A DNA stretch of 64,000 nucleotides. Source: Escherichia phage vB_EcoM_G2285. This document shows positions 34,221-49,003 of this stretch, piece by piece. Made by a program: the position numbers and the translations under genes. The stretch lies in the sequence record MK327933.1; one strand, written 5' to 3'. How positions within the stretch are numbered: position 1 is the first letter of the stretch; each line of letters begins with the position of its first letter. Below the pieces are notes generated by a model. The model searched no databases. It saw only the letters and a program-made list of their open reading frames with translations, and had not been told where the DNA came from.

Positions 34221-34791
34221 AAAAGTTTCGAATTTGTTCCCAATTCAGAGAACGAAGATTATTACGAGAGTACTGAATTACTTCAATACCAGCTTGTTTA
34301 AGAATGTCTGCCCAATTTTCAGGAGACCGGTCATATAATTCTGCATATACAACCTTTTTAATGCCTGACTGTGTGATAGCTTTAGTGCAATCAGGACATG
34401 GAGAAAGTGTCGTATACAACGTAGCACCTTCAATAGAATTACCTTTACGAGCTGCAAACAAAATTGCATTCAATTCAGCATGGATTTCGTTATTAGCAGA
34501 CCATACACTATGAGCAGCCCGATGTTCTTTAGCCAAAACAAAATTATCTGCCCGTCCAAATGCTGTAGTGCCTTCTTTATGTCCAGCAACGATGTCCGGG
34601 CTTGGTTTATTCTTCAACCAGCCGTTTTCGGATGCATGTTCGCAACAGTTTGTACCACCTGAAGGAGAGCCATTATAACCTGTAGAAATAATGCGTCCAT
34701 CTTTTTCAATGACGGCACCAACTTTCCATGAACAACATTTTGATTCTTGAGAAATCAAATAAGCAATTTGAAGATATGTGCTAGCTTTCAT
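34210..34791 (-). CDS. cd: dCMP deaminase (Cd)
   Basis: 193 aa; zinc-binding HAE and PCxxC motifs; T4 Cd-like. Confidence 0.9.
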   Translation of the reverse strand: MKASTYLQIAYLISQESKCCSWKVGAVIEKDGRIISTGYNGSPSGGTNCCEHASENGWLKNKPSPDIVAGHKEGTTAFGRADNFVLAKEHRAAHSVWSANNEIHAELNAILFAARKGNSIEGATLYTTLSPCPDCTKAITQSGIKKVVYAELYDRSPENWADILKQAGIEVIQYSRNNLRSLNWEQIRNFCGE

Positions 34792-35783
34792 TATTGAACC
34801 TTATTAATATAAGTTAACAGCTCTTTAGTTTGTTCCCAACTGATGCACGCATCGGTAACGGAAACGCCATAGGACATATTATCAGAAATTTTTTGATTTC
34901 CTTCATGTAGGAATGATTCTATCATAATTCCTTTGACCAAATCATTAGCTGCTAAATTTTTACCAATACCAATTTGATTGCTATAATGCCCAGCAGCGTT
35001 TGCATGGCTACAGTCAACCATTACATAATGATTCAGACCTACTGCACTTGCTTTGTTAGAAGCTTCTTGAATATCAGAAGAATGATAGTTCGGGCCGTTG
35101 GTCCCGCCACGCAATACGATATGCGTATTCTGATTACCTTCAGCTTCAACAATGCCTACAGTACCATCGACGTCCATACCCATATACCGATGAGGCCGGG
35201 CGGCACTATACATCGCGTCTGTAGCTACTTTAATAGAACCATTGGTCGCGTTCTTGAAGCCTACGCACATCGGTAGACCTGAAGCAATTTCACGATGTGT
35301 CTGACTTTCAGTCGTACGGGCGCCAATAGCAACCCATGAGAAAATACCAGAAAGATACTTAATCGTGAATGGGTCTAATACTTCAGTTGCTAACGGAAGT
35401 CCCATACGTAGAAGTTTACGACACAATGTTCGTGCAACTATAAGACCGTGGTTCATATCAAAACTTCCGTCAAGATATGGATCATTTACAAGACCTTTCC
35501 AACCTACGGTAGTTCGAGGCTTTTCAAAATAAACGCGCATCACTAACAGAACATTAGGAAGACGAGTTTGAAGTTCAGCCAGACGTTTGCCGTATTCAAC
35601 AGCAGCAATAGGGTCATGAATTGAACAAGGACCTACAACAATAAGTTTGCGTGGGTCTTCACCGTTCATAATCGAATTAACTTGTTCGCGATGAGAAGCC
35701 ACTTGTGATGCGTAAGCTTCCGACAAAGGAATAATCTCAGCCAGTTCTTTTGGAGAAATAAGTTTTCTGACGACAGGTAACAT
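34791..35783 (-). CDS. 3-deoxy-D-arabino-heptulosonate-7-phosphate (DAHP) synthase, class I (AroG/AroF-like)
   Basis: 330 aa; GPCSIHD, MRVYFEKPRTTVGWKGL, IGARTTESQ, GFKN, LRGG, CSHAN, EGNQ, TDACISWE motifs; stop overlaps the cd start (TAATG). Confidence 0.85.
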   Translation of the reverse strand: MLPVVRKLISPKELAEIIPLSEAYASQVASHREQVNSIMNGEDPRKLIVVGPCSIHDPIAAVEYGKRLAELQTRLPNVLLVMRVYFEKPRTTVGWKGLVNDPYLDGSFDMNHGLIVARTLCRKLLRMGLPLATEVLDPFTIKYLSGIFSWVAIGARTTESQTHREIASGLPMCVGFKNATNGSIKVATDAMYSAARPHRYMGMDVDGTVGIVEAEGNQNTHIVLRGGTNGPNYHSSDIQEASNKASAVGLNHYVMVDCSHANAAGHYSNQIGIGKNLAANDLVKGIMIESFLHEGNQKISDNMSYGVSVTDACISWEQTKELLTYINKVQ

Positions 35784-39739: not shown

Positions 39740-40873
<1,134 letters not shown>

Positions 40874-40920: not shown

Positions 40921-41331
40921 CTACTTTTTCTTATGTTGGATATTCCAAGGCGGGTTGAACTTTTTGATAAAAAGCGGTTCTTCAAGGTCCATTGTTGCGA
41001 TGGTCATTGAACCAAGTTCGTTGGTGACTGAAAGGTCAAAACATTGGCGGGCCCAGAATTCAACCTTTTTGCCTTGCATTAAGGCATCCAAAATCATAAG
41101 TGATTTTCTTGAATCTGAAGTCTGGTCTTTTCGATTTATGGCTGTTCGATAATAGTTAATGCGTTTCTTTAAATTCTTGGTTTTACCAATATACACAAGT
41201 TCGTCATCTATAGCAATAGCATATATGACATTTTTCTTATTAGGGACATCGACTGTTTTAATTGTTGCATCTTCTAATAGCTCCAATTCCGTATATTTAA
41301 TAAAGGAATATTCGGCGGCGATATCTTTCAT
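40921..41331 (-). CDS. denA: Endonuclease II (DenA), GIY-YIG family
   Basis: 136 aa; GIY-YIG-like IYAIAIDDELVYIGKT. Confidence 0.85.
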   Translation of the reverse strand: MKDIAAEYSFIKYTELELLEDATIKTVDVPNKKNVIYAIAIDDELVYIGKTKNLKKRINYYRTAINRKDQTSDSRKSLMILDALMQGKKVEFWARQCFDLSVTNELGSMTIATMDLEEPLFIKKFNPPWNIQHKKK

Positions 41332-41339
41332 AATAAAGT

Positions 41340-41353
41340 GGGACCGAAGTCCC
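41340..41353 (-). terminator. Hairpin GGGAC-ttcg-GTCCC downstream of nrdB exon 2
   Basis: UUCG tetraloop hairpin between the nrdB stop and denA start. Confidence 0.45.
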
Positions 41354-41357
41354 GTCC

Positions 41358-41860
41358 TTAGAAATATTTTTTGTACGAATTGATTACATTTTGGTCTACA
41401 TCATTATCAATTTGTGCGACAAGATAAGAACTGATTTCAACTTCTTGTGGGGCTGCTTGAACCAAATCAGAGTTCAAATACTCACGAATCCATGGAATAG
41501 GATGACGAGTTGATACGTCTTTAAGAGGACATGGCAGACCACAACTACGCATACGAGACACGGTAAGATAATCCACAAATTCACTTAGGATTTTAACATT
41601 TAGACCTGGAAGAGCACCATCTTTAAACAAGTGTTCAGCCCATTCTTTTTCTTGAGCGTTAACTTCCATGAAAATATCAACTGCTTCTTGTTCACACTCT
41701 TGAGCAATTTTGACCCATTCATCACCGTCTTCGCCATCTTGTAAAGCACGAATAATATATTGAGTGCCCTTGAGGTGGAGCTGTTCATCACGAGCAATGA
41801 ACTTCATAATCTTGGCATTACCTTCCATGATTTCCATATTCTTGTGGAAGTTAAAGGTAC
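41358..41860 (-). CDS. nrdB: Ribonucleotide reductase small subunit NrdB, exon 2
   Basis: Continuation ...TFNFHKNMEIMEGNAKIMKFIARDE...; 3' splice site after an omega G; exon lengths sum to 393 codons. Confidence 0.7.
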
Positions 41861-42949
41861 CGTATGTTCGATTGAGCTCGCTAATTCTCAACCCGTTCTC
41901 TTATGAACTGCTGCATGTTACCATGCAGTCCAGACTATATCACAATCCCGGAGGGATTCTCCCCATTTCGAGTCGCTTGACCCTACGTCCGAAGACTAGT
42001 CGTTGAACCTTGTTTTGCAATTGTCGCCGTGCCATCGTTTATATGTTGATGGTGATAAATCTTTCTTATCACAATATGGACAATTCAATTGAATTCTATT
42101 TGGATTTAATTTACATCTGTCATTATGTTTTAGATAAAATCCAGGACCTTTACCAATGTGACCACAGAAATCACATGTGATTTCTTTTTGTGCAGGATGG
42201 GTCCCGTTCTTAACCATTTCTAATGTTTTTGCTGATGTTCTTTTCTTATGGTCTTCTGATAAGAAATGATGTGAACCGTCATTTACCCGTTTTGATTGAG
42301 TTTCTGACTGCATTTTACCACCGCAAAATACATGAGTACCTTCTTTTATAGCTGCAATATTGCGTTCTTTAACTTTTGCAATATGCTCAGCTTGTTGAAA
42401 ATTATGTATACCTAATGCAACTCTATTTAAATTAGATTTACGCTGTATTTCACCATCTAAAAGATGAAATGTACCATTTTCTATCTTAGATTTAATAGAG
42501 GCAATATTTTTAGCTCGTACTTCAGGGATATTAAAAATCTGGATTTCTCTAGATTTTGCGGCTTTAGAAGCTAATTCAGAAATTTCTTCAGGAGAATATT
42601 TCATTCTAAGCTTTATAGCATGACAAGCCTGGTAATCTTTTTGAGCTAAATGTATATCATAATGTTCCTGTATAGAAAGGCACATCAAATTATCTAAATC
42701 ATTATTTTCACGGTTACCGTCTTTATGATGCATTTCGTATGTTCTTCCATCAGAATCTTTAGGTATAGGTCCGTTAGCATCTATCCAAATTTTTCTATAG
42801 TTCAATTGTGCATCCTCTTAAAAGTATAATCATATTTATATTATACTAATTAAAGGTGCAAGCAAAACCTTGGCTGCTAGTTTTCCATAAAGGACTTTCC
42901 AGCAATTAAAGGAGTTTTCGATAAACGTTACCGTTTAAAGGCGCATTTT
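41861..42949 (-). mobile_element. Group I self-splicing intron in nrdB, carrying I-TevIII (1089 nt)
   Basis: Interrupts the conserved NrdB motif FYVSFA|C; 5' exon ends in U, intron begins UAA and ends in G; boundaries inferred by hand. Confidence 0.7.
41996..42805 (-). CDS. I-TevIII HNH homing endonuclease (intact, 269 aa)
   Basis: HNH motif HHKDGNRENNDLDNL plus C-terminal Cys-rich zinc-finger-like region; within the nrdB intron. Confidence 0.85.
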   Translation of the reverse strand: MNYRKIWIDANGPIPKDSDGRTYEMHHKDGNRENNDLDNLMCLSIQEHYDIHLAQKDYQACHAIKLRMKYSPEEISELASKAAKSREIQIFNIPEVRAKNIASIKSKIENGTFHLLDGEIQRKSNLNRVALGIHNFQQAEHIAKVKERNIAAIKEGTHVFCGGKMQSETQSKRVNDGSHHFLSEDHKKRTSAKTLEMVKNGTHPAQKEITCDFCGHIGKGPGFYLKHNDRCKLNPNRIQLNCPYCDKKDLSPSTYKRWHGDNCKTRFND

Positions 42950-43625
42950 ACGCAAAAGATACATAAAAACGAATAGCTTCCAATGCGTTGATTACATGGA
43001 GGCAAAGGTAAAGAGATTTCATTAAAGCACGTTTAGCTTCGGCTTCTTGTTTAATAGCTCGGTTTAAACGAAAGACGGCATCAGGAGATTCTTTAGCTAG
43101 TTCTACAAATTCTTTAGCGTTTTCCCAATAACGAGCTTTAACCAGAACATCATCATAATATCGTCCGATAGATTCGGCACGCTTCATAATAGCTTCATCT
43201 AATACAATCTCATCAAACACCTTCGATGGATCTGTATAAAGATTTCGCATAATATGAGTATATGAACGAGAGTGAATAGTTTCACTGAAAGTCCATGTAG
43301 CAACCCATGTATCTAATGAAGGGTCTGAAAGCAATGACATAAGTACCGCAGATGGTGCTCTACCTTGGATAGAATCTAATAATGATTGATACTTAAGGTT
43401 GTTGGTAAAGATGTCCTGTTGGAACTGTGGAAGCTTATTAAACTGGGCCGAATCCAACATCAAGTTTACTTCCTCGGGACGCCAAAAGAACGAGAGCTGC
43501 CGCTCAATGAGTTCTTCAAATACTCGATGTCGTTGAATATCATATCGAGCTAAACCTAATCCAGAACCAAAGAACATCGGTTCATTCAAAACATTGACTT
43601 GTTGTGTGTTAAAAACTGTACTCAT
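42950..43625 (-). CDS. nrdB: Ribonucleotide reductase small subunit NrdB, exon 1
   Basis: 225 codons ending ...ALEAIRFYVSFA; the apparent stop is the UAA that begins the intron. Confidence 0.75.
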
Positions 43626-43678
43626 TATATTTTCTCACTTAGTTTAACTCATCCATGAGTAAATTATAATCAAAAGTC

Positions 43679-45934
43679 TTAAAGCTTACAAGCAGAACAA
43701 TCTTCTGCTTTAGGTGTTTCTAATTCATAGTCGTCTGTACCAGACCCATCACGAGTGTTATGATAGTAGAGGTTTTTTCCGCCAAAGTACCAGAAGTAAA
43801 GCAGATCGTCAAGCATTACTGACATTGGCACTTTACCTTTCTCAAATACTGCAGGGTCATAGTAAGTATTAGCAGAAGCAGATTGACACACCCATTTCAA
43901 CATGATAGCAACTTGGGTCAAATAAGGTTTATTACCTTTCTTAGCAAGTTTCCACGCATAGTCGTAAAGACTCATGTTATGTTCGATATTAGGAACAACC
44001 TGACGGAAGTTGCCTTCTTTAGATTCTTTAATACTTACTGGACCACGTGGTGGCTCAATCCCATTTGTAGAGTTAGATACTTGACTGCTTGACTCACAAG
44101 GCATGAGTGCAGACAACGTTGAGTTACGAATTCCATGTTCTTTGAGTTCAGCTCGAAGTTCTTCCCAATCACATACGTAGTTCGGGGCTGCGATTTGGTC
44201 AATCTTTTTATTGTACCAGTCGATAGGTAATTCGCCTCTAGACCATTTAGTGTCTGAATAATACTCGCAACATCCTTTTTCTTTGGCGAGTTTGATTGAT
44301 GCTTTGATAAGGCCATATTGCAATCTCTCAAACAATTCATGAGTCAAATCGTTAGCGTCTTCATATGAAGCAAAGTTAGAAGCTAACCATGCAGCATAGT
44401 TCGTAACACCAACACCAAGATTACGACGCTTTTTGGCTTTTAAAGCTTCTGGAACCGGATAATCTTGATAGTCTAACAGGTTATCAAGTGCACGTACTTG
44501 TACTTCAGCAAGTTCATTAATTTTATCTTGGTCTTGCCAATCAAATTTATCTAATACAAAGGCAGAAAGAGTACAGAGGCCCACTTCAGCATCAGGACCA
44601 TTCACATCATTAGTTGGAATAGCGATTTCACAACATAAGTTACTCTGTCGAATTGGAGCTTTTTCACGAATAAATGGAGTGTAGTTATTCGTGTTATCAA
44701 CAAACTGTGGATAAATTCGAGCAGTACCAGAACGTTCAGTCATGAACAATTCAAAGAGTTCTAGTGCTTTGATTCTTTTCTTTCTGATTGTTGGGTCTTT
44801 TTCAGCTTTCTCATAAAGCTCACGGAATTTATCTTGATCTTCAAAGAATGAGTAATATAGTTCGCCTGACATTTCGTGAGGGCTAAATAAAGTAATATAA
44901 TCATTTTTACCAAGGCGTTCCATCATGAGGTCATTAATCTGAATTCCGTAGTCCATATGTCGAATACGGTTTTCATCCACGCCTTTGTTATTTTTCAGAA
45001 CTAATAGGTTCTCTACTTCTAAGTGCCACATCGGATAATACGCTGTAGCAGCACCACCACGAATACCACCTTGAGAACAAGATTTTACTGCAGTTTGGAA
45101 ATGTTTCCAGAATGGAATAACACCCGTATGTCGAACTTCACCCATACCGATCTTAGAACCTTCTGCACGAAGCATACCAACGTTGATACCAATACCAGCT
45201 CGTTTAGAAATATATTCAATAATTGATGCTGAAGTTTTGTTAATAGATTTTAACGAATCACCGGCTTCAATAACTACACAACTAGAGAACTGGCGAGTCG
45301 GAGTACGAGCACCTGCCATAATTGGGGTTGGCAATGAAACTTGATGAGTAGAAACGGCATCATAAAAACGAATAATATGTTTCAAACGGTCATGAGTTTC
45401 GTCTTGGTGTAAGGCCATGCCAATAGCCATGATAGCAAACTGTGGAGTTTCATAAATCTTCCCAGTTGTTTTATCTTTAACTAGATATTTTTCTTTAAGC
45501 TGCATAGCACCAGCATAAGTCAGGTCAAAGTCTCGTTCATGTTTAATCTGTGAATCGAGATAAATGATTTCTTCTGCAGAATATCTAGACAACAACTCAG
45601 GATCGTATTTGCCTTCATTAACACAATACGAGATATGGTCGATAAAAGCAGGCGGTTCAAACTGCCCATATACATCTTTACGAAGTGCAAACATTAGCCC
45701 TTTGGCGGCGACATACTGATAATCAGGTTCTTCGACAGAAATCGAGTTAGCTGCAACTTTAATACAAATCTTCTGGATATCTTTGGTGCTCATCCCGTCG
45801 ACAAGATGGGTCTTAATTTCTTCGTACAATTCATATGGGTCAATTTGTGTTCCTTCACATTGCCAAGTTAAGACTTGAATAATTTTCTGTGCATCAAAAT
45901 TTTGGGATACACCACTGCTCTTAGTTACTTGCAT
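43679..45934 (-). CDS. nrdA: Ribonucleotide reductase large subunit NrdA
   Basis: 751 aa class Ia RNR alpha subunit, T4 NrdA-like. Confidence 0.95.
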   Translation of the reverse strand: MQVTKSSGVSQNFDAQKIIQVLTWQCEGTQIDPYELYEEIKTHLVDGMSTKDIQKICIKVAANSISVEEPDYQYVAAKGLMFALRKDVYGQFEPPAFIDHISYCVNEGKYDPELLSRYSAEEIIYLDSQIKHERDFDLTYAGAMQLKEKYLVKDKTTGKIYETPQFAIMAIGMALHQDETHDRLKHIIRFYDAVSTHQVSLPTPIMAGARTPTRQFSSCVVIEAGDSLKSINKTSASIIEYISKRAGIGINVGMLRAEGSKIGMGEVRHTGVIPFWKHFQTAVKSCSQGGIRGGAATAYYPMWHLEVENLLVLKNNKGVDENRIRHMDYGIQINDLMMERLGKNDYITLFSPHEMSGELYYSFFEDQDKFRELYEKAEKDPTIRKKRIKALELFELFMTERSGTARIYPQFVDNTNNYTPFIREKAPIRQSNLCCEIAIPTNDVNGPDAEVGLCTLSAFVLDKFDWQDQDKINELAEVQVRALDNLLDYQDYPVPEALKAKKRRNLGVGVTNYAAWLASNFASYEDANDLTHELFERLQYGLIKASIKLAKEKGCCEYYSDTKWSRGELPIDWYNKKIDQIAAPNYVCDWEELRAELKEHGIRNSTLSALMPCESSSQVSNSTNGIEPPRGPVSIKESKEGNFRQVVPNIEHNMSLYDYAWKLAKKGNKPYLTQVAIMLKWVCQSASANTYYDPAVFEKGKVPMSVMLDDLLYFWYFGGKNLYYHNTRDGSGTDDYELETPKAEDCSACKL

Positions 45935-46276: not shown

Positions 46277-46588
46277 TTATACCGCCATTTTAGCTTTGAT
46301 AGTTGGATGAGATTCGTAATTTTTAAGAACGAAATCAGAATGTGTCATCGTTCCAGTAACCCAGTCCATTTGGATTTTTGTAGGCCAATTCTCAAAATTA
46401 CTAGGCCAATTAATTTCAAGAGAACATAACTCTTTAGGTTCACGACGAAGAACTTCTTTGCATTGTTCTACATGATTGCTGTAGATATGCGTATTGCCGC
46501 CTGAGAACACTAAATCACCTGGGATAAGGTTACACATCTTCGCTACAATATGAACTAACGTAGCATATGATGCAATATTAAATGGAAG
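46277..46588 (-). CDS. td: Thymidylate synthase Td, exon 2
   Basis: Starts LPFNIASYATLVHIVAKM...; track ORF start ATG is the intron-terminal AUG. Confidence 0.85.
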   Translation of the reverse strand, partial: LPFNIASYATLVHIVAKMCNLIPGDLVFSGGNTHIYSNHVEQCKEVLRREPKELCSLEINWPSNFENWPTKIQMDWVTGTMTHSDFVLKNYESHPTIKAKMAV

Positions 46589-47604
46589 CATTATGTTCAG
46601 ATAAGGTCGTTAATCTTACCCCGGAATTATATCCAGCTGCATGTCACCATGCAGATCAGACTATATCTCCAACTTGTTAAAGCAAGTTGTCTATCGTTTC
46701 GAGTCACTTGACCCTACTCCCCAAAGGGATAGTCGTTAGGCATTTATGTAGAACCAATTCCATTTATCAGATTTTACACGATAAGTAACTAATCCAGACG
46801 AAATTTTAAAATGTCTAGCTGCATCTGCTGCACAATCAAAAATAACCCCATCACATGAAATCTTTTTAATATTACTAGGCTTTTTACCTTTCATCTTTTC
46901 TGATATTTTAGATTTAGTTATGTCTGAATGCTTATGATTAAAGAATGAATTATTTTCACCTGAACGATTTCTGCATTTACTACAAGTATAAGCAGAAGTT
47001 TGTATGCGAACACCGCACTTACAAAACTTATGGGTTTCTGGATTCCAACGCCCGTTTTTACTTCCGGGTTTACTGTAAAGAGCTTTCCGACCATCAGGTC
47101 CAAGTTTAAGCATCTTAGCTTTAACAGTTTCAGAACGTTTCTTAATAATTTCTTCTTTTAATGGATGCGTAGAACATGTATCACCAAACGTTGCATCAGC
47201 AATATTGTATCCATTAATTTTAGAATTAAGCTCTTTAATCCAAAAATTTTCTCGTTCAATAATCAAATCTTTCTCATATGGAATTTCTTCCAAAATAGAA
47301 CATTCAAACACATTACCATGTTTGTTAAAAGACCTCTGAAGCTTTATAGAAGAATGGCATCCTTTTTCTAAATCTTTAAAATGCCTCTTCCATCTCTTTT
47401 CAAAATCTTTAGCACTTCCTACATATACTTTATTGTTTAAAGTATTTTTAATCTGATAAATTCCGCTTTTCATAAATACCTCTTTAAATATAGAAGTATT
47501 TATTAAAGGGCAGTCCTACAATTTAGCACGGGATTGTCTACTAGAGAGGTTCCCCGTTTAGATAGATTACAAGTATAAGTCACCTTATACTCAGGCCTCA
47601 ATTA
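46589..47604 (-). mobile_element. Group I self-splicing intron in td, carrying I-TevI (1016 nt)
   Basis: Intron begins UAAUUGAGGCCUGAGUAUAAGG and ends ...CAUAAUG as in the T4 td intron; exons join in frame (GGU|CUU). Confidence 0.9.
46736..47473 (-). CDS. I-TevI GIY-YIG homing endonuclease
   Basis: 245 aa; GIY-YIG start (GIYQIKNTLNNKVYVGS); matches remembered T4 I-TevI. Confidence 0.95.
   Translation of the reverse strand: MKSGIYQIKNTLNNKVYVGSAKDFEKRWKRHFKDLEKGCHSSIKLQRSFNKHGNVFECSILEEIPYEKDLIIERENFWIKELNSKINGYNIADATFGDTCSTHPLKEEIIKKRSETVKAKMLKLGPDGRKALYSKPGSKNGRWNPETHKFCKCGVRIQTSAYTCSKCRNRSGENNSFFNHKHSDITKSKISEKMKGKKPSNIKKISCDGVIFDCAADAARHFKISSGLVTYRVKSDKWNWFYINA

Positions 47605-49003
<1,399 letters not shown>

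Follow-up and report, generated by a model that had tools for sequence, protein, structure and literature searches.

The group I intron of nrdB in T4-like phages is a known element, described between 1986 and 2007. The intron itself, its full-length form in phage RB3, the deletion carried by T4, the domains of the encoded enzyme, the cleavage site, and the mobility have all been published. The RB3 nrdB intron and its endonuclease, I-TevIII, were reportedly the subject of work by Eddy and Gold in 1991.

The T4 nrdB intron is described as self-splicing (PMC2988022). Its own open reading frame (ORF) is dead, and mobE, which lies next to it, mobilises it in trans (PMC2790892). Homing of the RB3 intron depends on I-TevIII and reaches 4.3%, versus <0.1% with the T4 intron (Robbins et al. 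2007, PMC1865063). RB3 I-TevIII binds across the insertion site as a dimer and cuts 14 and 16 bp upstream so that the ends carry 2-nt 3′ overhangs, and the purified enzyme is weak and labile (PMC1865063). Alanine substitution of H26, H27, N39 or H48 each abolished cleavage by the RB3 enzyme, and mutating C211, C214, C242 and C245 reduced zinc and DNA binding (PMC1865063). I-HmuI of SPO1, likewise encoded in a group I intron, has the same general plan of an N-terminal HNH (beta-beta-alpha-Me) module and an extended DNA-binding region. In contrast to I-HmuI, I-TevIII dimerises for the double-strand break and uses zinc fingers (PMC1865063). Middle and late promoters drive three intron endonucleases, I-TevIII included; an arrangement in which a hairpin sequesters the ribosome-binding site has been described for I-TevIII, and a putative I-TevIII operator has been proposed (PMC2988022).

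Here we describe the nrdB locus in a 64,000-nt stretch of DNA (the window) from a T4-like phage (Tequatrovirus). The minus-strand nrdB gene is interrupted by a 1089-nt insert at 41861..42949, and the region is almost certainly a T4-type self-splicing nrdB group I intron with an intact gene for the HNH homing endonuclease I-TevIII in its P6 loop. The analysis directly establishes the anatomy of the locus, where its junctions fall, how the RNA pairs, that the ORF is intact and conserved, and the identity to the T4 and RB3 elements; coordinates are given in Table 1.

As a discovery the element matters little, since virtually the same one is found in dozens of sequenced phages. The full-length intron occurs in at least 84 public phage records (at least 80% of the intron covered). 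The nrdB region is matched by 879 records, only 84 to 87 of which have the full-length intron or ORF. The closest introns, such as those in TadeuszReichstein (MZ501106), vB_ECOLIGBLB0003, SHFML-11/26, a20 and NRG-P0074, are 99.6-99.8% identical over 1089 nt.

Over a 24-kb stretch around the intron, some 97% is matched by E. coli phages, vB_EcoM_G2469, JM17 and JK45 among them. The minus-strand gene order is nrdA (45934..43679), nrdB, denA (41331..40921, GIY-YIG) and rnlA (40864..39740). Between nrdA and nrdB in the window mobE is absent, the intergenic gap being only 53 nt, so any mobility of the intron must come from I-TevIII itself. A plausible terminator-like hairpin lies downstream of nrdB at 41353..41340.

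Table 1. Features of the interrupted nrdB gene, in window coordinates
Feature	Coordinates	Strand	Details and basis
nrdB exon 1	42950..43625	-	676 nt; Pfam Ribonuc_red_sm model positions 9-141; splice reconstruction
Group I intron	41861..42949	-	1089 nt; 5′ AAAAUGCGCC ... AACAUACG 3′; A42949 to G41861
nrdB exon 2	41358..41860	-	503 nt including stop; Pfam match; boundary backed by intron-less alleles
P1	42941..42953	-	exon GCGU 42953..42950 with intron guide GCGC 42944..42941
5′ half of ribozyme core	42862..42936	-	hand-drawn structure; same helices in Rfam alignment of ortholog CJY920
P2	42936..42923	-	
P3, 5′ strand	42914..42909	-	
P4/P5	42904..42875	-	
P6/P6a, 5′ strands	to 42862	-	
3′ half of ribozyme core	41861..42024	-	P6a/P6 3′ strands, P7, P7.1, P7.2, P3 3′ strand, P8, P9, P9.1, P9.2
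P7	42001..41997 with 41937..41933	-	
P3, 3′ strand	41964..41959	-	
P8	41958..41944	-	
P9	41928..41911	-	
I-TevIII ORF	41996..42805	-	269 aa; UUG start 42805; UAG stop 41998..41996
Segment deleted in T4	42247..42737	-	491 nt; endpoints ambiguous by 4-nt CATA repeat
T4 late-promoter consensus	42833..42840	-	TATAAATA; upstream of I-TevIII ORF; sequence
Hairpin sequestering the ribosome-binding site	42809..42860	-	UGCACCUUU (42860..42852) pairs with AGAGG-A-UGCA (42818..42809)
Homing-site mimic, putative I-TevIII operator	42847..42867	-	TTTTGCTTGCACCTTTAATTA
Recombination patch, outer bounds	41844..43136	-	segment-wise difference counts and crossover positions

Splice junctions and the ribozyme core

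In the ORF list nrdB appears as two minus-strand ORFs, 43625..42948 and 41891..41358, which match the N-terminal and the C-terminal half of the Pfam Ribonuc_red_sm model, respectively. Exon 1 ends ...TTT TAT GTA TCT TTT GCG T at 42950, encoding FYVSFA plus the U of a Cys codon. Exon 2 begins at 41860 with GT ACC TTT AAC, where GU-ACC gives (C)ys-Thr. The predicted ligated junction is ...UAUCUUUUGCGU/GUACCUUUAAC... (...UUUGCGU/GUACC..., the slash marking the point of ligation). It cannot be shifted, because the flanking bases differ at each boundary (T/A at the 5′ end, G/G..T at the 3′ end). The spliced gene is 1179 nt long (392 aa plus stop). Across the junction the protein contains ...EAIRFYVSFACTFNFHKNMEIMEGN..., and the joined NrdB reads ...EAIRFYVSFA-C-TFNFHKNMEIMEGN..., with FYVSFA-C-TFNFHK as the junction motif.

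Intron-less nrdB alleles, which are common in public phage records, agree with this reconstruction. The nrdB gene of phage ESCO47 runs unbroken through the same place, ...TTTTACGTGTCTTTTGCT TGT ACT TTC AAC TTC CAT..., or FA-C-TFN. A 400-nt query made of the spliced junction found one unbroken match in many phage nrdB genes; 20 of the 25 best records listed are among them. The first-pass annotation had split NrdB into two ORFs and joined them by hand into FYVSFA-C-TFNF and a frame of 393 codons, which is what the splice reconstruction gives once the stop is counted, and its placement of the intron turned out to be exact to the base on the minus strand. It had also proposed the P1 pairing of exon GCGU with intron GCGC and a terminal intron G, and both are found. 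The U.G wobble at the 5′ splice site is U42950.G42944, and P1 is invariant in the seven intron variants compared. The 3′-terminal guanosine (omega-G) is G41861, directly before exon 2 GUACC.

The remaining helices were drawn by hand and scored on seven distinct intron variants with the ORF removed. The full set comprises P1, P2, P3, P4, P5, P6, P6a, the ribosome-binding-site hairpin, P7, P7.1, P7.2, P8, P9, P9.1 and P9.2, with P7 pseudoknotted with P3. Each of the 77 proposed base pairs is kept in every one of the seven variants (539/539 cells paired, 100%), versus only 34-47% in a control in which the 3′ partner was slid by 1-3 columns. Three pairs show compensatory two-sided changes, two in P2 and one in P9 (G-C to A-U), and four pairs vary on one side only with pairing kept. 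Most pairs never vary and the covariation rests on three of them, which makes this conservation a confirmation and not strong independent proof.

What argues strongly for a group I intron here is the identity to the self-splicing T4 intron, rather than the pairing counts. The complete 598-nt T4 intron is contained in the window at 100% identity, split into a 5′ block of 212 nt and a 3′ block of 390 nt that share a 4-nt CATA repeat; the two introns have the splice junctions annotated in AF158101 in common, and their RNAs differ only by the extra ORF segment, which lies in a peripheral loop. The 491 nt that T4 lacks encode I-TevIII residues ~23-186, including the HNH motif, and in T4 the reading frame is shifted. 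AF158101 labels the remnant 'I-TevIII homing endonuclease (defective) ... deletion in proximal half', which bears out the first annotator's statement that the T4 reference has a truncated enzyme. In T4 the I-TevIII ORF is defective and mobE is at hand; in the window the ORF is intact and mobE is absent.

The RB3 element sits in the same host gene at the same insertion site, with the same 269-aa, UUG-initiated ORF in the P6 loop. Its intron aligns with that of the window from one end to the other and is 1091 nt long versus 1089 nt here, owing to an extra A in the P5 loop and another near the 3′ end. Over the 3′ core segment (41995..41861) it shows six differences from the window, counting the 3′ extra A; these fall in the P8 loop, in two P9 pairs (one of them the compensatory G-C to A-U), and at one position just 5′ of P9. 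RB3 carries mobE between nrdA and nrdB, whereas the window does not.

A covariance-model scan had been suggested as a check on the group I assignment, and it gave a divided answer. By default, the scan of the whole window returned 0 matches at the gathering score. In permissive E-value mode RF00028 reached 35.6 bits (E = 4.5e-7) against a gathering score of 50, with the 3′ core only. This shortfall arises because the 810-nt ORF occupies the P6 loop. Natural derivatives without the ORF, whose intron cores are near-identical to that of the window, pass RF00028: CJY920 (309 nt) scores 71.7 bits and SG1 (420 nt) 57.9 bits. The empty default Rfam scan is explained by the ORFs in the loops of introns, and is not evidence against an intron. 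The RF00028 alignment of the window was not used for P1-P6, as its 5′ half is mis-placed inside the ORF. Other sub-threshold Rfam matches (rseX, snoRNAs, HIV_GSL3; E > 4) were dismissed as chance.

That negative default scan is one of two observations that would suit a quite different reading, in which nrdB is a disrupted pseudogene holding a free-standing HNH endonuclease cassette and there is no splicing intron. The other is that several GenBank records give two separate 'NrdB' CDSs and a 'hypothetical protein'. Yet the insert shows all the hallmarks of a group I intron, it shares its sequence with the T4 intron described as self-splicing, its excision restores a frame exactly co-linear with intron-less homologs, and both exons are conserved at the protein level (Pfam). 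On the restored frame, the T4 identity and the conserved exons we rejected this reading, which is extremely improbable. For annotation, nrdB belongs in one joined CDS, rather than in two fragments and a 'hypothetical protein' as in several GenBank records.

The I-TevIII gene and its expression signals

The intron ORF had been taken for a 269-aa HNH enzyme with a Cys-rich zinc-finger region, and for the full-length form of I-TevIII. Both identifications hold. Pfam HNH_3 matches residues 4-48 (E = 1.2e-11), and phrog_12324, 'intron-like DNA endonuclease', matches over the full length (269/269) at 6.6e-193. The protein is identical to RB3 I-TevIII at 266 of 269 residues and shares with it the HNH residues and both zinc fingers. 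Catalytic H26, H27, N39 and H48 are all intact, as are both C-terminal CX2CX12-13HX3C fingers: C211, C214, H227 and C231 in the first (CDFCGHIGKGPGFYLKHNDRC, from residue 211), and C242, C245, H259 and C263 in the second (CPYCDKKDLSPSTYKRWHGDNC, from residue 242). The UUG start is the one used in the RB3 GenBank annotation, is conserved in phage S16, and sits 7 nt after the sequence AAGAGGA. A Pfam FlgM match in the linker (residues 74-114; 26.2 bits versus a cut-off of 25) was judged spurious. A PDB sequence search with I-TevIII found no meaningful relative, the best match (E = 0.28) being an unrelated deaminase.

Comparison with the 88%-identical S16 ortholog, in which all twelve key residues are conserved, gives dN/dS = 0.12, and this value shows long-term purifying selection on the ORF. 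The three differences from the RB3 enzyme are Y23 for D, M25 for I and T265 for A. The last ~8 codons of the gene overlap the P6a/P6 3′ strands and the P7 5′ strand, and the T265/A265 polymorphism is also an alternation of U-A and U.G in P6a. The substitution I25M is private to the window: nt 42731 is G here and C in 6/6 other full-length introns examined. It is one of just two nucleotides that separate this intron from the 99.8% identical intron of TadeuszReichstein.

The late promoter, the Shine-Dalgarno hairpin and the homing-site mimic are positioned as in the literature (PMC2988022). The hairpin buries the Shine-Dalgarno sequence AAGAGGA (42819..42813) and has the late promoter in its loop. 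Its minimum-free-energy fold is -18 kcal/mol (z = -2.4), and 9/9 pairs are invariant in the seven variants. The mimic matches the spliced homing site, read across the insertion point (TTTTGCGT/GTACCTTTAACTT), at 17/21 positions, a score reached by 0/2000 shuffles. A general scan for sigma-70 promoters and terminators found no excess over shuffles (8 versus 9.8), and such a scan is uninformative for T4 middle and late promoters.

If splicing chemistry, late expression, cleavage and homing are as the T4 and RB3 literature describes them, the element would work as follows. First, nrdB would be transcribed through the intron and the RNA would fold into the P1-P9.2 core. Guanosine would attack after the U of the P1 U.G pair, between 42950 and 42949, and the exons would be ligated after the terminal G (41861), restoring the Cys codon UGU and the 392-aa NrdB. 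Second, in read-through nrdB transcripts the ribosome-binding site of I-TevIII would be locked in the hairpin. Because the internal promoter TATAAATA lies in the hairpin loop, late transcripts from it would lack the hairpin 5′ arm, and the UUG-initiated 269-aa protein could be made from them. Third, an I-TevIII dimer would bind intron-less nrdB through its two C-terminal zinc fingers; the positions in exon 1 of the window equivalent to the RB3 cuts are about 42963 and 42965. Finally, repair templated by the intron-containing allele would copy in the intron and some of the flanking exon. Mobility in the real world may be low, the RB3 enzyme being weak and labile.

It is also conceivable that the intron splices but that the I-TevIII encoded here cuts too weakly to matter, or not at all, leaving a stagnant passenger kept only because its imprecise loss would destroy nrdB. 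The residue that I25M changes abuts catalytic His26, and no other of the seven sequences compared has the change. Loss of the endonuclease is also frequent, as indicated by at least five independent forms of ORF decay: T4 (598 nt), AV115 (592 nt), ESh36 (587 nt), SG1 (420 nt) and CJY920 (309 nt). On the other hand, Ile to Met is a conservative change, and position 25 is not among the residues shown to be essential. The gene has kept its frame, its catalytic residues and zinc ligands, its Shine-Dalgarno sequence, start codon and promoter, and the dN/dS of 0.12 speaks for long-term purifying selection. We consider an inactive passenger unlikely.

A recombination patch around the intron

The nrdB gene of the window is a mosaic. 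From 43499 to 43076, and over the whole of exon 2, it differs from JK45 at 0-2 positions and from TadeuszReichstein at 62-101. From about 43135 to 41861 the relationship is reversed, with 4 differences from TadeuszReichstein in ~1.27 kb versus 24 from JK45. The TadeuszReichstein-like patch takes in the intron together with ~125-185 nt of exon on its upstream side and at most 17 nt on the other side. The downstream crossover thus lies no more than 17 nt from the intron, and the tract is skewed upstream. A separate T4-like patch occurs in nrdB at 43594..43497.

The asymmetry of the patch is compatible with co-conversion after a cut on the upstream side of the insertion site. The suggestion in the first-pass annotation that the element may still be mobile appears reasonable in the light of RB3 homing (PMC1865063), the dN/dS of 0.12 and this conversion-tract-like mosaic. 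We tentatively go further and suggest that the allele may be the exact undeleted progenitor of the T4 laboratory intron, and the patch the footprint of recent natural homing by I-TevIII, a proposal that we place close to the middle of the scale and slightly on the doubtful side. It rests on the 598/598 nt identity to T4, the 491-nt deletion flanked by CATA, and the TadeuszReichstein-like patch in a JK45-like nrdB. If it is true, active spread of the intron among wild Tequatroviruses is under way and needs no help from mobE.

Alternatively, two intron-containing T4-like phages could have exchanged the patch by ordinary homologous recombination in a co-infection, with no homing by I-TevIII. JK45, the closest phage for the surrounding exons, itself has an RB3-type intron (1091 nt, with two single-A indels and a handful of substitutions relative to the window), and an intron-plus recipient is plausible on that account. 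Intron-plus alleles are not targets of I-TevIII. T-even genomes are also highly mosaic, as the second, T4-like patch in the same gene illustrates. What tells against general recombination is the lopsided form of the patch, which has limits at about 43136/43075 and 41864/41844 and extends no more than 17 nt downstream versus 125-185 nt upstream. We regard this origin as a real contender, but a somewhat doubtful one.

The locus adds a small data point of natural history: a core identical to that of T4 combined with an endonuclease gene that is intact, the absence of mobE, and a mosaic resembling a conversion tract. These fit the cycle in which homing endonuclease genes home, decay and are lost, and the series of 1089-, 598-, 592-, 587-, 420- and 309-nt introns illustrates the same cycle. 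In CJY920, the shortest of the series, the ORF has been cleanly removed between two ACAATTG repeats.

Mosaic structure of nrdB and the nrdA-nrdB junction

The nrdB gene of the window is a mosaic drawn from three sources. The background is JK45-like, and two patches stand out within it. The larger (41844..43136) is TadeuszReichstein-like and takes in the intron together with 125-185 nt of the upstream exon. The second, separate from the first, is a stretch of about 100 nt toward the nrdB 5′ end (43497..43594) that is identical to T4 and differs from JK45 at 19 positions.

Between the nrdA stop (43679) and the nrdB ATG (43625) lie 53 nt (43626..43678), where neither mobE nor nrdB.1 was found. 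This differs from T4, in which both sit between nrdA and nrdB, and from RB3, which has mobE at this position, while JK45 and TadeuszReichstein resemble the window in lacking mobE and nrdB.1 from the gap. At the other end of the gene, directly past the nrdB stop codon and ahead of denA, lies GGGACTTCGGTCCC, a terminator-like hairpin with a T-rich tail after it (Table).

Decay and variation of the nrdB intron

Shortened forms of the same nrdB intron were found in public phages at five loci, each a deletion derivative (Table). In CJY920, the entire ORF is gone between two ACAATTG repeats, and the remaining core scores 71.7 bits on the Rfam group I intron model RF00028. The deletions in the five introns are independent of one another, and taken together these introns show, in series, how a homing endonuclease gene decays in nature.

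The full-length intron of the window carries a private substitution, a G at nt 42731 where all six other full-length introns examined (including RB3, JK45, TadeuszReichstein, BCPEco_001 and S16) have C. It changes Ile25 of I-TevIII to Met, just ahead of the catalytic His26, and also gives rise to an in-frame AUG.

In many genomes deposited in GenBank (MK962757, PV295200, HQ331142 and others), nrdB is entered as two separate CDSs instead of one joined CDS, and the intron ORF is labelled "hypothetical protein" or given a shortened start, not named I-TevIII.

The td intron and an auxiliary metabolic gene

A second split gene, td (thymidylate synthase), is interrupted by a group I intron bearing an intact I-TevI. 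RF00028 matches within this intron at 46867..46637 with 42.5 bits, under the gathering score. The td intron with I-TevI is an already known feature of T4.

To our knowledge, T4 has no DAHP synthase (phospho-2-dehydro-3-deoxyheptonate aldolase) gene. The window encodes one as an auxiliary metabolic gene; its ORF matches Pfam DAHP_synth_1 (2e-75) and phrog_5045, and the gene is also annotated in the closest relatives.

Table. Window features and shortened nrdB introns of public phages
Feature	Coordinates	Strand	Length	Remarks
DAHP synthase	34791..35783	-	330 aa	
Terminator-like hairpin	41340..41353	-		
td	46277..48153	-		split gene
td exon 1 ORF	48153..47602	-		
I-TevI ORF	47473..46736	-	245 aa	GIY-YIG, I-TevI zinc-finger, DNA-binding domains
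td exon 2 ORF	46591..46277	-		
T4 nrdB intron (L003)			598 nt	deletion derivative
CJY920 nrdB intron (L006)			309 nt	deletion derivative
AV115 nrdB intron (L008)			592 nt	deletion derivative
ESh36 nrdB intron (L009)			587 nt	deletion derivative
SG1 nrdB intron (L010)			420 nt	deletion derivative
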